This document shows positions 14,235-24,173 of a stretch of 50,479 nt of DNA, piece after piece. The stretch comes from Clostridia bacterium. GTDB taxonomy: Bacteria > Bacillota > Clostridia > UBA1212 > UBA1255. Position 1 is the stretch's first letter. Each line of letters starts with the position of its first letter. Made by a program: the position numbers and the translations under genes. The stretch lies in NCBI GenBank assembly GCA_017613535.1, contig JAGADO010000042.1:1-50479 (forward strand), in the 5' to 3' direction. Below the pieces are notes generated by a model. The model saw only the letters and a program-made list of their open reading frames with translations. It was not told the origin of the DNA and searched no databases.

Positions 14235-14921
14235 TCAGAGAGCTTCCGGATACTCGTTGCACAGCAGCCTGTACGGAGGCTCGTCTTCTTCTATCTCCGG
14301 AAAACGTCCGGCGGGAGGATCGAAGTGATTGTCCGTATTATCATCGTTGCACTGACTAACCTCTCCTAAAAGCACATCCCCGGTTCCCGCTTCGACCGAA
14401 AAGTCGTGATACAGACGCTGCTGAATGAAGATGCTTTCTCCTGGCGTCAGTCTCACCTGTGTCCCTGCCGGTACAGTATATGTACGGCCGTCTGTGTGAA
14501 CAGTGACGTCGGACTCGTAATCGATAGTTTCATCGGGGTGCGAATTGTATACGCGGATAAGGATATTGCCCCCGCCGCGGTTGATGATGTCCTCGGTCTT
14601 GAACCAGTGGAAGTGATTGAGCGAATACTGCCCTTCCTTCAGGAACAAAAGTTTCTCCGCATAAACCTTCGGGTATTTGTCAGGCATCAGTCGGTTTCCG
14701 TTTCTGATGGTTATGAGCGAAAATCCGACTTCGTCAAATTTTCCCAGGCCGTAGTCTGTTATATCCCATCCGAGCATGCAGTCGCGCACCTCGTCATATT
14801 CATGTCCTTTTGTTTTCCACTCTTCGGGCGTAAAGTTGCAGAAAGGCGGCAGCATAAAGCAATGCTTTTCGCACATTGCTTCGAGTTCTTTAAGTGCTTT
14901 GTTTATTTCGCTGCGTTTCAT
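14235..14921 (-). CDS. D-lyxose/D-mannose-family cupin sugar isomerase
   Basis: MKRSEIN, LGWDITDYG, YAEKLL, metal ligands HFHWFKTEDIINRGGG and LYHDF, GEVSQCNDDNTDN, RFPEIEEDEP. Confidence 0.9.
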   Translation of the reverse strand: MKRSEINKALKELEAMCEKHCFMLPPFCNFTPEEWKTKGHEYDEVRDCMLGWDITDYGLGKFDEVGFSLITIRNGNRLMPDKYPKVYAEKLLFLKEGQYSLNHFHWFKTEDIINRGGGNILIRVYNSHPDETIDYESDVTVHTDGRTYTVPAGTQVRLTPGESIFIQQRLYHDFSVEAGTGDVLLGEVSQCNDDNTDNHFDPPAGRFPEIEEDEPPYRLLCNEYPEAL

Positions 14922-14981
14922 ATTATCTCCTCCGTTCTGAAGCGCGTCTCCTTCGTGAGATGCTTTTTCTCAACCGCTGAA

Positions 14982-15011
14982 ATTATAACGCACACGGAGG
15001 CACGTTTGCAA
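14982..15011 (-). promoter_or_regulatory. Putative sigmaA promoter for the sugar isomerase
   Basis: TTGCAA-N18-TATAAT on the minus strand. Confidence 0.55.
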
Positions 15012-15069
15012 GAACCGGTAGAATATGGCTCTGCTCCCGAAATCGATTGATGATAACAAAGCTTGTGTA

Positions 15070-15420
15070 CGTCATAGAAAATGAACTGATCCCGCTGTTT
15101 TGCTATGACGGGAGCAGCGACACATCATCTAAAATGAACGAGACAGCCATCGAGGCAGCGCCGGCCTTGATGTATTCACATTTCCAGGATCGGGTTCTGC
15201 CTCTTCGATTGAAACACAGCCAAATATCATAGAAGGAAACAATCTTTTAAGATTCTCTATGACCTCAGGATGTTTCCAATACATTGAGCATACAAAAATG
15301 AGCTATTTCGTCATAGAGAAAACCCGGATATTATTTTTCTCTATGACGCGCATTGCCATCCGCCTCAAAAACGAGCGGCCCCATCATAGAGAAATTAAAC
15401 ATATCGCATTTCTCTATGAT
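15070..15420. repeat. Periodic array of palindromic units TCATAG(AGAA)...(TTCT)CTATGA
   Basis: TCATAG/CTATGA arm pairs span 15072-15108 (37 bp), 15227-15262, 15311-15346 and 15384-15419 (36 bp each). Interiors and inter-unit sequences differ. Possible degenerate unit near 15147. Confidence 0.88.
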
Positions 15421-15663
15421 TGATAGCGAAGCATTAGCATTAGCATTATCGCCGGCATCAGCGTCGGTATTTATGATCAGCATAATTTTACGATTTCGAG
15501 AGCAGAGGCCGGAATCAGGCTTTTACATACAAAATCGCAGCGGATCATATTGATTATTCATCAGATTTGTGGTATATCATAACCCGAAAGGCATAAAGTG
15601 CGGGACTGATCCCGCGCAAAGCATATATCGGTGCAGAAACCGATACCGGCAGGAAAACGAAAT

Positions 15664-18075
15664 ATGGACGAACAGAAAGAAAACGCGAAAAAAGATATAA
15701 AAGAAAAAGAAGAATCCTTAAGCCTTCCAACCGGAACGCCGGAAGACATCGTACTGACGCCCGAGAGCGGATTGACAGAACAGGAAGCAGCCGAAGCCAT
15801 GGCGGCAGGAGACGGAAACAAAGCCTCCGTCGAACCGGGAAAATCGGTCCTGCGCATCGTTGCCGATAACCTGTTCACTCTGTTCAATCTGCTCAACATA
15901 TTGCTGGCCATCGCGCTCGTAATTGTCGGAGCGTACAGAAATATGCTGTTCCTCGGCATTGTCATCAGCAACACCCTTATAGGAACGATACAGGAACTGC
16001 GCGCCAGAAAGACCGTAAAAAAACTCAAACTCCTGAGTGAATCACCAGTAAAGATCAAGCGCGGCGGCACCGTCGGAGAGTACCCCGCCGATGAAGCAGT
16101 TAAAGGCGATATCGTCATTCTGAAAGCAGGCGATCAGGTCCCGGCTGATGCTATAATGCGTTCCGGCGTCTGCTCCGCGAGCGAGGCTCTTCTGACAGGC
16201 GAACAGGACGCTGTCGAAAAGAAATACGGCGACTGGCTGTATTCAGGCAGTTTCCTGACATCCGGAGCGTGCGAGTGCCAGCTCGTGCATGTGGGTGATA
16301 ACAGCTACATCAACAGACTAAGCAGAAACGCTAAAAAGATCGTGCCTCCCAAATCTGCTCTGATGACCGATCTGCGCCGCATCGTGAGGATCGTAAGCGT
16401 GCTGCTCATACCAATCGGCATACTGCTGTTCTGCAAGCAGTTTTTCATGCTTCACTCTCCGCTGACCGAAGCGATACCTTCGACCGTCGCGGCAATGATC
16501 GGCATGATCCCCGAAGGGCTCGTGCTGCTGGCATCGGTAGCGCTGGCGGTAGGCGTTGTAAAGCTCGGTATGAGGAAAACGCTCGTGCAGGAATTGTACG
16601 GGATCGAAACGCTGGCAAGGATCGACACGCTCTGCCTGGATAAAACAGGCACGCTCACGACAGGGGCAATGTCATTGGCGGAACTGATCCCGCTCGACGC
16701 TGACGAAGAAGAACTGAGAAAAACGCTTGCAGACTTCCTCGGCGCCGTTGACAACACCGCTCCCACCCTTGCCGCGATCTGCCGCGAGATCGAGCCTGTG
16801 CCCAACACGCCGGAAGTACTTCTCCCCTTCTCGTCAGACCGCAAGAACACCGCCGTAACATTTCCGGGCGGAAGAACGATCGTGGTCGGAGCTCCCTCGT
16901 TTACGCTCGGAGAGTCGTACGCAGGACGGTACAAAGAGATAGTCCGGGAGAAGGCAGCCGCCGGTCTCAGAGTGCTCGCCATTGCCGAATGCGAAGGAAG
17001 CATCGAGGACGGTAAGATCCCTCCTGTCACAAGGATCCTCGGCTTATGCGTCATTTCAGACGAACTCAGAAAAGAAGCGCCTCAATGTCTCGAATATTTC
17101 AGGGAAGAGGGCGTCACGATAAAAGTGATTTCTGGAGACGATTCCGTAACGGTATCGTCTATAGCAGAATCCGCCGGTTTAACTGGAGCATCGTCGCACG
17201 CGGTAGATACTTCGCTTCTGAAAGACGAAGAACTTGAAGAAGCAGCGGAAAAATACATAGTTTTCGGACGTGTTACGCCGGAACGCAAGCGCATGCTGAT
17301 CGCGGCAATGAAAAAAGCCGGTCACAACGTCGCGATGACAGGCGACGGAGTAAACGACATACCCGCGATGAAAGTTGCCGACTGCTCGATCGCAATGGCG
17401 GGCGGCGCAGATGCGGCGAGACACACGGCTCAGCTGATACTGCTTGACAATAACTTCACTTCCCTGCCCGAAGTCGTTTCCGAAGGAAGACGAGTTATCA
17501 ACAACATTACCAGGACATCTTCTCTGTTCCTCGTTAAAACGATCTTCTCGTTCCTCCTGAGTCTTCTGATGCTGGTGCTCCCGGCGTCGTACCCGTTCCA
17601 GCCGATACAGCTGACTCTCGTATCTGCCGTTTCAATAGGCATACCCGGATTTTTCCTGGCGCTCGAGCCCAATAAGGTCCGCGTTAAGGGCAATTTCCTC
17701 AAAACCGTCTTTTCGAATGCTCTTCCCGGAGGTATCTGCGTGACGATAGCGGCTGCTCTGTCGGCGATGCTCAGTTCGGTCTGGTCTAAAGCTTCCTGCT
17801 CTACTATGGCCACCGTGGCAGCAGGTATCATCGGTCTGCTGATGCTTCTTAAAGTCTGCCTGCCGTTCACGAAACTCCGCCTGGCCGTATTCACATCGAT
17901 GTGCGTGCTGTTTGCCATTGCGCTCGCGTTTTTCGGCAGAATATTCTACCTGACACCGATCAGCGGAGGCCAGGTGGCAATACTTGCCGGGATCGCGCTG
18001 TTCGGTGCCGGAGTCATATTCGGGATCCGTTATTTATACCGCAAATTCAGGAAAGGCGGCGCCAGAAATCCCTGA
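15664..18075 (+). CDS. Cation-transporting P-type ATPase (CtpE-like)
   Basis: GMIPEGL, DKTGTLT, ISGD, MTGDGVND, LLTGEQ; multiple TM segments. Start moved to ATG 15664. Confidence 0.93.
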   Translation: MDEQKENAKKDIKEKEESLSLPTGTPEDIVLTPESGLTEQEAAEAMAAGDGNKASVEPGKSVLRIVADNLFTLFNLLNILLAIALVIVGAYRNMLFLGIVISNTLIGTIQELRARKTVKKLKLLSESPVKIKRGGTVGEYPADEAVKGDIVILKAGDQVPADAIMRSGVCSASEALLTGEQDAVEKKYGDWLYSGSFLTSGACECQLVHVGDNSYINRLSRNAKKIVPPKSALMTDLRRIVRIVSVLLIPIGILLFCKQFFMLHSPLTEAIPSTVAAMIGMIPEGLVLLASVALAVGVVKLGMRKTLVQELYGIETLARIDTLCLDKTGTLTTGAMSLAELIPLDADEEELRKTLADFLGAVDNTAPTLAAICREIEPVPNTPEVLLPFSSDRKNTAVTFPGGRTIVVGAPSFTLGESYAGRYKEIVREKAAAGLRVLAIAECEGSIEDGKIPPVTRILGLCVISDELRKEAPQCLEYFREEGVTIKVISGDDSVTVSSIAESAGLTGASSHAVDTSLLKDEELEEAAEKYIVFGRVTPERKRMLIAAMKKAGHNVAMTGDGVNDIPAMKVADCSIAMAGGADAARHTAQLILLDNNFTSLPEVVSEGRRVINNITRTSSLFLVKTIFSFLLSLLMLVLPASYPFQPIQLTLVSAVSIGIPGFFLALEPNKVRVKGNFLKTVFSNALPGGICVTIAAALSAMLSSVWSKASCSTMATVAAGIIGLLMLLKVCLPFTKLRLAVFTSMCVLFAIALAFFGRIFYLTPISGGQVAILAGIALFGAGVIFGIRYLYRKFRKGGARNP

Positions 18076-24099: not shown

Positions 24100-24173
24100 G
24101 GGGACGTAGCTCAGTTGGTCAGAGCGTTCGGTTCACATCCGAGAGGTCATGGGTTCGAGCCCCCTCGCCCCCA
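24100..24173 (+). tRNA. tRNA-Val (anticodon CAC), CCA not encoded
   Basis: Cloverleaf: GGGGACG/CGCCCCC acceptor, GCTC/GAGC D-stem, TTCGG-TTCACAT-CCGAG anticodon arm, GGTTCGAGC T-loop region, discriminator A. Confidence 0.9.

Follow-up and report, generated by a model that had tools for sequence, protein, structure and literature searches.

The window, as we call the whole stretch of 50,479 bases analysed here, contains two genes transcribed back to back, one for a protein of the D-lyxose isomerase family and one for a P-type ATPase, and a group of palindromes lies between them (Table 1). A pattern search for TCATAG-N20-30-CTATGA gives four matches, all of them within 15072-15419 and nowhere else in the window. 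The number expected is 0.02, and none of 100 shuffled sequences gave four. This bears out the four units of the form TCATAG-N24/25-CTATGA described in an earlier note on this DNA. The note had also placed the array between two promoter-like sites, and not over them, and had seen no cas, integrase or transposase gene adjacent to it; both observations hold. In an Rfam 15 scan, the sole match in the window is a tRNA (24100-24173).

Table 1. Features of the intergenic insert and of the genes on either side, in window positions.
Feature	Position	Strand	Details
D-lyxose isomerase family gene	14235-14921	-	PF07385, 1.9e-97
Promoter-like site, D-lyxose isomerase family gene	14982..15011	-	TTGCAA-18-TATAAT, 10/12; called by consensus match only; immediately beyond the insert on its left side
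Whole inserted block	15026..15516	.	491 bp, non-coding; element plus presumably one copy of the target duplication
Left terminal inverted repeat	15027..15045	+	GGCTCTGCTCCCGAAATCG; type 2, ISL3-like
Unit 1	15070..15110	.	class A hairpin; 37-nt exact core 15072-15108; TCATAGAAAA / TTTTGCTATGA, one bulge
Decayed "head module"	15111..15185	.	in other copies, located after the terminal class A unit; contains the weak hairpin ~15148-15172
Unit 2	15226..15263	.	class B hairpin; exact core 15227-15262; degenerate left arm (TCATAGAAGG vs TTCTCTATGA)
Spacer motif copy 1	15293..15303	+	CAAAAATGAGC; copy of the genome-wide AAAATGAGCG(A)
Unit 3	15309..15348	.	class B hairpin; exact core 15311-15346; perfect 14-bp stem (CGTCATAGAGAAAA), 12-nt loop
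Spacer motif copy 2	15366..15376	+	CAAAAACGAGC; same motif as 15293..15303
Unit 4	15383..15420	.	class B hairpin; exact core 15384-15419; perfect 13-bp stem, 12-nt loop
Right terminal inverted repeat	15491..15509	-	reverse complement GGC-CTCTGCTCTCGAAATCG
Promoter-like site, P-type ATPase gene	15522..15551	+	TTTACA-18-CATATT, 9/12; called by consensus match only; immediately beyond the insert on its right side
P-type ATPase gene	15631-18075	+	PF00122, PF00702

The four units start 155, 84 and 73 nt apart. Folded as single-stranded DNA, unit 3 reaches -12.5 kcal/mol (z -7.9) and unit 4 reaches -9.3 kcal/mol (z -6.2). The bulged unit 1 has a z of -3.6, and the fold of unit 2 is weak (z -1.1), being equalled by 26 of 200 shuffles. 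A regular period of about 75, 80, 84 and 73 bp had been proposed, in which a weaker hairpin near 15147 took the place of a missing unit. The period stands for units 2 to 4 (84 and 73 nt), but the missing slot does not: the weaker hairpin has a z of -1.66, 13 of 200 shuffles fold equally well, and the stretch is by homology a head module. Because 15111-15185 is such a module, and not a decayed unit, only units 2 to 4 are periodic.

The hairpins belong to a family that is dispersed over the window's own genome (G000; 2.66 Mb in 177 contigs, 82% complete). The genome has 44 exact units, against one for the reversed control pattern, and requiring at least nine of the ten arm pairs gives 47 units in 23 clusters. 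The clusters are intergenic, with the sole exception of a doubtful 123-aa frame at contig C81. By rough ORF calls, 11 of the 23 lie between divergently transcribed genes, six are in tandem and two in convergent settings, and four are unclear or at contig ends. The units fall into two classes. Class A (TCATAGCAAA; (C)GTCATAGCAAA-N17-TTTGCTATGAC(G)) is 37 nt long and repeats with an exact period of 85 bp. Its spacers, which are conserved between loci, include another hairpin that is GC-rich, and its arrays contain units in both orientations. Class B (TCATAGAGAAA-N14-TTTCTCTATGA) is 36 nt long, has AT-rich loops and a period of 73 or 84 bp, and is present at about six loci, of which the arrays at C9 and C65 are flanked by inverted heptamer arrays.

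The sequence CAAAAA(T/C)GAGC, first noticed in two spacers of the window, is indeed present in both, but it is not specific to the array and belongs to the genome-wide motif AAAATGAGCG(A). The loops of class A, the spacers of class B and the ends of other repeats all contain this motif. In class B, it lies just 5' of the next hairpin and makes up conserved columns of the spacer. In G000 there are 73 copies of AAATGAGCG and 45 of the 10-mer AAATGAGCGA, against three to five for permuted 10-mers.

The window copy is assembled from modules of the genome-wide family, a single class A unit coming first and three class B units after it. More than 15 loci have class A head modules that match the segment 15026-15185, within which 15062-15185 aligns at 70-77% to C41, C61, C66, C131 and C113. 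Unit 1 has 75-88% identity to units at C19, C61, C131, C113 and C41, and its loop is homologous to that of the first unit of class A arrays elsewhere. The segment 15179-15445 matches the class B arrays at C15, C9, C113 and C65. Contig C15 has the same combination of class A and class B as the window, with the class B part inverted.

With repeats of 36 nt, spacers of 37 or 48 nt and stable hairpins, the geometry of the array resembles that of a CRISPR, and one could imagine a transcript that is cut into unit-length hairpin RNAs acting in trans. We regard such a processed array as extremely improbable. Its "repeats" are not identical direct repeats, since the inverted arms alone are common to the units, and the spacers are copied between loci and are not unique acquisitions. 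A search of G000 (82% complete) for Cas1 found none. A comparison of cores and spacers with phage and plasmid sequences had been proposed, and 15026-15516 has no match in 50,697 phage and 72,556 plasmid records. Furthermore, no Rfam 15 family matches the hairpin arrays in the window or at five other array loci, where the best match, bglG-cis-reg, scores 29 bits against a gathering score of 80.

The array lies inside a block bounded by inverted repeats. The inverted repeats of the window copy are 19 nt long, and over 17 nt the left one is 94% complementary to 15491-15507. Their motif, which we call type 2, also bounds class A arrays at C125:149-397 and C125:7512-7597, and it matches the end of an ISL3 element in the congeneric genome G001 (locus L163) at 21 of 27 aligned columns. 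A second and commoner end motif, type 1 (GCTCTTTTCCTKATTCCGTGAA), has about 45-51 copies in G000. The terminal inverted repeats of the array-bearing elements begin with GGCTCT. The modules of the region around a four-unit array, C131:10097-10793, recur one by one across the genome, and the region has inverted ends of ~58 nt. When ends facing each other are paired, the flanking 8-mers match at seven or more of eight positions in 7 of 13 pairs, against 2 of 156 cross-paired controls, and three pairs have perfect 8-bp target duplications (CAAGCAGG at C41, TTTCGTAT at C18 and CGGCTGAG at C131). At the window copy, the best match between flanking 8-mers is 5/8, a value also reached by 31 of the 156 control pairings, and there is no convincing target duplication. 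The type 1 elements differ in their number of 85-bp units: none at C18:43477-43785, one at C41, C66, C70 and C113:25507, two at C98 and four at C131. The transposed unit thus contains the array as a variable-number tandem repeat.

We scanned metagenomes with the type 1 end motif and obtained 50 loci, among them a complete insertion sequence (L183). Its transposase of 414 aa matches Zn_ribbon_ISL3, HTH_Tnp_ISL3 and DDE_Tnp_ISL3 (1.1e-63) and starts 51 nt inside the end motif. The left end of L183, GGCTCTTTTCCTGATTCCGTGAAAA, contains the searched motif (match over 22 bases), and the right end matches 20/25. As this locus was found by searching with the motif itself, the independent part of the result is the adjoining ISL3 transposase. 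Within the genus, a clear match to the ISL3 transposase was found in G001 alone; there was no match to PF01610 in G000 (82% complete) or in G004, and thus no partner enzyme is seen in the window's host. Insertion sequences are often left unassembled in genomes of this kind.

Two other candidates were considered in the search for a partner and set aside. At C18:9087-10471, two type 1 end motifs flank an ORF of 287 aa. On visual inspection, it resembles a lipoprotein, with a signal-peptide-like start followed by Cys, and not a transposase. In L180, an IS256/Mutator-type transposase lies at a distance of 254 nt from a type 1 motif and was read as a separate insertion.

Not all arrays have such ends. 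The class B arrays at C9, C65, C113:292, C86 and C135 have neither a type 1 nor a type 2 end within 900 nt, which means that the hairpins also occur outside demonstrable ISL3-type MITEs.

We compared the window with contigs of four public runs. Runs X2 and X3, probably from the window's source study, contain units 2-4 without differences. A contig of run X4, from another study (record 29, 235 nt, depth 4), follows 14820-15025 with 17 differences and then joins 15517, skipping 491 nt. The joint has 31 letters on its shorter side. The length skipped differs by no more than 1 nt from the distance between the outer ends plus 8 bp, and the limits of the block fall within 1-7 nt of the inverted repeats, which had been found independently. 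This empty site is a single short contig of low depth, placed at a likeness threshold of 88% and with a type of joint that is prone to artefact, so that it gives moderate support to the presence or absence of the block as a whole. The congeners G006, G003 and G004 have other arrangements beside the lyxose isomerase gene and no such array; their intergenic regions are too diverged or rearranged to define an empty site (the genes have 73-80% identity). A 26-nt word from the flank (15000-15025) had no match in the JGI metagenomes.

These comparisons bear on the idea that the palindromes are operators, to which a dimeric regulator of the divergent lyxose isomerase and ATPase promoters would bind. 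The array lies exactly between the two promoter-like sites, both arms are conserved in sequence beyond mere pairing, and the 11 clusters between divergent genes would fit this role. However, the same units stand beside unrelated genes at the 22 other clusters, and their half-sites are separated by 12-17 variable bases, with no fixed operator geometry. Since the block is absent from the X4 contig and from the congeners, both genes do without it. The array neighbours include lyxose isomerase, P-type ATPase, DUF4838, Trp/Tyr-tRNA synthetase, rhamnosidase, RF3 and a HIGH nucleotidyltransferase. They are unrelated to one another. An operator array is therefore very unlikely.

We assign next to no probability to an integron-like array, in which the hairpins would be attC-like sites of a tyrosine recombinase. 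Conservation limited to the arms, possible folding as single-stranded DNA and arrangement in arrays are features that would fit such sites. Against this, spacers of 37-48 nt are too short for cassette genes, the three Phage_integrase matches of G000 are on C156 and C27, contigs without arrays, and the array-bearing units show 8-bp duplications of the transposition type.

The hairpin family is dispersed and intergenic, and its arrays travel in units that are bounded by inverted repeats and flanked by 8-bp duplications. We consider it likely that the four palindromes of the window are a hairpin minisatellite inside a non-coding, non-autonomous MITE of ~483 bp, which has ISL3-type ends and was inserted between back-to-back promoters. 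An ISL3-family DDE transposase would move such an element in trans through its GGCTCT... ends. The array might grow and shrink by slipped-strand or unequal recombination between the 73/85-bp units. The (C)GTCATAG...CTATGAC(G) arms may be kept because the hairpin or cruciform, or a protein that reads the arms, matters for the propagation or stability of the element. Any local effect would be no more than incidental and would concern the two promoters, which the insert would have pushed ~490 bp apart.

The array is thus an ordinary kind of bacterial repeat, a BOX- or BrickBuilt-like MITE, and not a new system. The earlier note had proposed a CRISPR-like, self-standing and undescribed system; what lies in the window is one copy of a dispersed family of REP/MITE type, inside an element bounded by inverted repeats. 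Membership in a REP or MITE family had been named there as an outcome that would speak against the proposal, and this is largely what we found: the repeat family is dispersed, and the array is one of its copies. The candidate system gives way to a documented ISL3-type MITE with a hairpin minisatellite, in an uncultured gut bacterium. The result is a repeat family defined by its sequence, with two hairpin classes, two end types and the recurring AAAATGAGCG, which could be masked or annotated in genomes of rumen and gut Clostridia. Since several arrays are at contig ends, the family probably breaks assemblies of these genomes.

The family is confined to few lineages. In 41 related genomes, the count of units rises above that of the control (0-7) in just two, G000 (44 units) and G004 (31). 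The pattern search proposed for the whole genome and its relatives thus succeeded in these two and gave nothing above control in the others. G002 has three units, equal to its control count, and two of these are orthologous to a G000 array. In a second species, the same 8-bp arm core is kept, with no relationship in the loops and spacers. A scan of one genome per species returned at least 110 stretches; among the matches listed, almost all are single, chance-like and in unrelated taxa, and the multi-unit loci are only L034, L038, L052, L064 and L076. These five add no further genome, because their unit sequences had already been seen in the genus. Viral contigs gave five single-unit matches and no arrays. 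Among the listed matches of a literature search with the four arm strings, the hairpin family did not appear; these matches look like unrelated uses of the strings, such as primers.

The earlier reading that conservation is confined to the arms, and that these look like recognised sites, was correct. The arms are conserved in sequence, beyond mere pairing. Positions -1 to 9 pair, and pairing falls to chance level past position 10. Covariation of the outer bases, which had also been described, is weak: 91% of them are paired, against 83% with shuffled partners (43 of the 44 exact units have enough flank). At position -1 of these 43 units, the pairs are G-C in 37, A-T in two and G-T in two, and two are unpaired. 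The only clear symmetric change is the switch between classes, at arm positions 7-8, where C-G/A-T becomes A-T/G-C (95% paired, against 58-60% when shuffled). Whole-unit HMM alignments place the arms far above loops and spacers, even if they inflate arm conservation somewhat, because the HMM also scores the arms. In class A (21 full-length units), conservation is 0.976-0.992 in the arm columns, 0.717 in the loop and 0.799 in the spacer. In class B (10 HMM hits, some of which are two readings of one unit), it is 0.86-0.99 in the arms, 0.50 in the loop and 0.59 in the spacer.

The MITE model leaves the 98-99% conservation of the internal arms unexplained, since a MITE needs only its ends to move. 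Such a constraint is not what one would expect of a sequence that a MITE merely carries along. The (C)GTCATAG...CTATGAC(G) hairpin might be the cis-site of a protein specific for this structure or sequence, which would bind or nick DNA or RNA and would maintain and amplify the 73/85-bp units. We hold this reading tentatively, as rather unlikely. Its main support is the contrast between arms at 98-99% and loops and spacers at 50-80%, together with the arm core kept in the second species. It would amount to a REP/BIME-like system of gut Clostridia that rides in ISL3-type MITEs and in heptamer-array elements, a possibility to which we give the same low probability. The constraint on the arms is the feature of wider interest: if a protein reads them, REP-like biology extends to Clostridia.

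In another reading, the hairpins themselves would be the mobile or amplified entities, read in single-stranded form by a RAYT-type Y1 (HUH) transposase, the MITEs and other repeats being places where they accumulate. The palindromes of 36-37 nt form intergenic clusters, their stems are conserved and their loops variable, and class A arrays mix both orientations, as BIMEs do. Arm conservation is far above the needs of a passenger, some arrays lack ISL3-type ends, and G000 encodes three Y1_Tnp (PF01797) proteins of ~276-303 aa. Yet none of seven Y1 loci (three in G000 and one each in G004, G002, G003 and G006) has a TCATAG...CTATGA hairpin; all that they show is two isolated CTATGA hexamers. Six of the eight genomes of the genus have Y1 genes, among them G001, G003 and G006, where hairpins are not above control, whereas arrays are present in two or three. 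In the passages of PMC3733652 that define them, CGTC-tagged REPs have an unpaired GTAG/CGTC tag, stems of 8-9 bp and loops of 4-5 nt. The units studied here also begin with CGTC, but the CG pairs with the far end, the stems are 10-14 bp and the loops 12-17 nt. Moreover, class A arrays have demonstrably moved as units with inverted repeats and target duplications. We therefore judge mobility of the hairpins by themselves distinctly unlikely, and return to the ISL3-type MITE when comparing the array with known systems.

Among described repeats, BOX of Streptococcus pneumoniae (boxA-boxB(n)-boxC) is, in the relevant passages of PMC3049150, similarly modular, non-coding and intergenic. In both BOX and the family studied here, tandem internal modules in variable number lie between end modules that have inverted repeats and target duplications, stem-loops are predicted, length varies among copies or strains, and the elements are often nested with other repeats. 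This likeness concerns architecture and not homology, and no sequence relationship is expected. In the same passages, boxB is 45 nt long and conserved over its full length; in the 73/85-bp units described here, conservation is confined to the inverted arms. In addition, the ends are ISL3-like and the host is an uncultured lineage of gut or rumen Clostridia. BrickBuilt of Porphyromonas gingivalis, as presented in parts of PMC4596501, is also a minisatellite in a MITE, with a leader and a tail that carry small inverted-repeat ends. Both families have tens of copies and a limited host range, and BrickBuilt copies are always intergenic. According to the same parts of that source, the BrickBuilt repeat is a 23-nt unit with no spacers and no variable-loop hairpin, it belongs to another phylum, and promoter activity was demonstrated for it.

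REPs and BIMEs resemble the family in being short, clustered, intergenic palindromes with conserved stems, in both orientations and specific to species (passages of PMC3733652 and PMC2817692). Judged by the same passages, the differences are that the family has ~45 copies and not hundreds, is enriched between divergent genes and not downstream of genes, and shows no RAYT linkage. In mobility, the closest relatives are ISL3 elements. Published ISL3 ends start with GGCTCTTCG and come with 8-bp duplications (Table 3 of PMC6305408), and an ISL3-derived MITE has been described in Microcystis aeruginosa in a passage of PMC11448079. Ends that begin with GGCTCT and direct target duplications of 8 bp are shared by the ISL3 elements of these passages and the family described here. 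The passages on ISL3-derived MITEs in PMC11448079 and PMC6305408 do not mention internal hairpin arrays, which are present here. A further difference is that the window copy has no clear duplication and that the search of the G000 assembly for an ISL3 transposase found none. The family would be closest to BOX and BrickBuilt in architecture and to ISL3-derived MITEs in mobility, and its ends and duplications would class it as an ISL3-type MITE.

The two-unit array of class B TCATAG hairpins (TCATAG-N-CTATGA palindromes with a 73/84-bp period) on contig C65 of the window's own genome, G000, can be aligned together with its downstream DUF4838 gene to a locus of the congeneric genome G002, with 90.9% identity over 1,632 nt. 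The lyxose isomerase genes of the same two species are just 73–80% identical, and this difference in sequence identity suggests either a recent transfer of the block or its unusual conservation. The likeness ends at a run of heptamers. Such runs of 7-nt words (GGCAAGT and GGCAAAT types) border the class B arrays on contigs C9 and C65, and on C65 those on the two sides of the array are inverted relative to each other. Comparable runs, made of different words, adjoin arrays in a congener.

The motif AAAATGAGCG(A) is over-represented across G000, where the 9-mer occurs 73 times and the 10-mer 45 times, versus 3–5 times for permuted 10-mers. Several distinct repeat modules contain it, among them the subterminal stretch of type 1 ends, the commoner ISL3-like terminal inverted repeats of array-bearing MITEs. 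Two facing type 1 end motifs alone form minimal palindromes of 40–50 bp at two sites of G000. Both have the look of solo end pairs or of elements that have lost their interior, and at neither site is a target duplication clear (4/8 positions match). A type 1 end motif also lies 254 nt from an IS256/Mutator-family transposase on a metagenome contig, where the transposase is probably an unrelated insertion adjoining or within a MITE. The 11-mer ACTGATCCCGC, present in the loop of unit 1 of the window array, has an exact second copy immediately upstream of the ATPase start codon, which may be due to chance or be a piece of another class A loop. Elsewhere in G000, a putative tRNA-like 3' part, seen by eye, immediately precedes a two-unit class A array (85-bp period).

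Three ORFs of G000 (~276–303 aa) carry Y1_Tnp (PF01797) at the N-terminus, followed by a long C-terminal extension, and similar genes occur in 6 of the 8 genomes of the genus. The TCATAG hairpins show no linkage to any of these three ORFs. The copy on C164 has long hairpins of short G-rich repeated words on both flanks.

Coordinates of the arrays, element ends, genes and motifs
Feature	Location	Details
Array–DUF4838 block	L220:1379-3001 (G000 C65:17878-19500)	aligned to L139:1413-3037 (G002)
Heptamer runs, C65	L220:1369-1436, 1671-1726	G000
Heptamer-flanked class B array, C9	L221:290-420	G000
Heptamer runs, congener	L022 ~1085-1125; L052 ~455-510	
Type 1 end-pair palindromes	C80:6340-6389; C169:8992-9031	G000
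IS256/Mutator transposase	L180:56-1297	PF00872, 4.3e-114
Y1_Tnp ORF loci	L016 (C164:3057-6392), L017, L018	G000
tRNA-like 3' part (putative)	C81:6250-6330	G000
AAAATGAGCG(A)	window 15293-15303, 15366-15376	
ACTGATCCCGC	window 15085-15095, 15605-15615	unit 1 loop; ATPase leader
GC-rich hairpin array	L022:900-1070	G004; GGAGGCCGCAAT...ATTGCGGCCTCC, then T-run

Upstream of its own lyxose isomerase gene, the congeneric genome G004 has three tandem copies of a GC-rich hairpin, followed by an (AAACTTA)n run. These hairpins are unlike the TCATAG type: at the corresponding locus, the congener carries a separate family of hairpin arrays.
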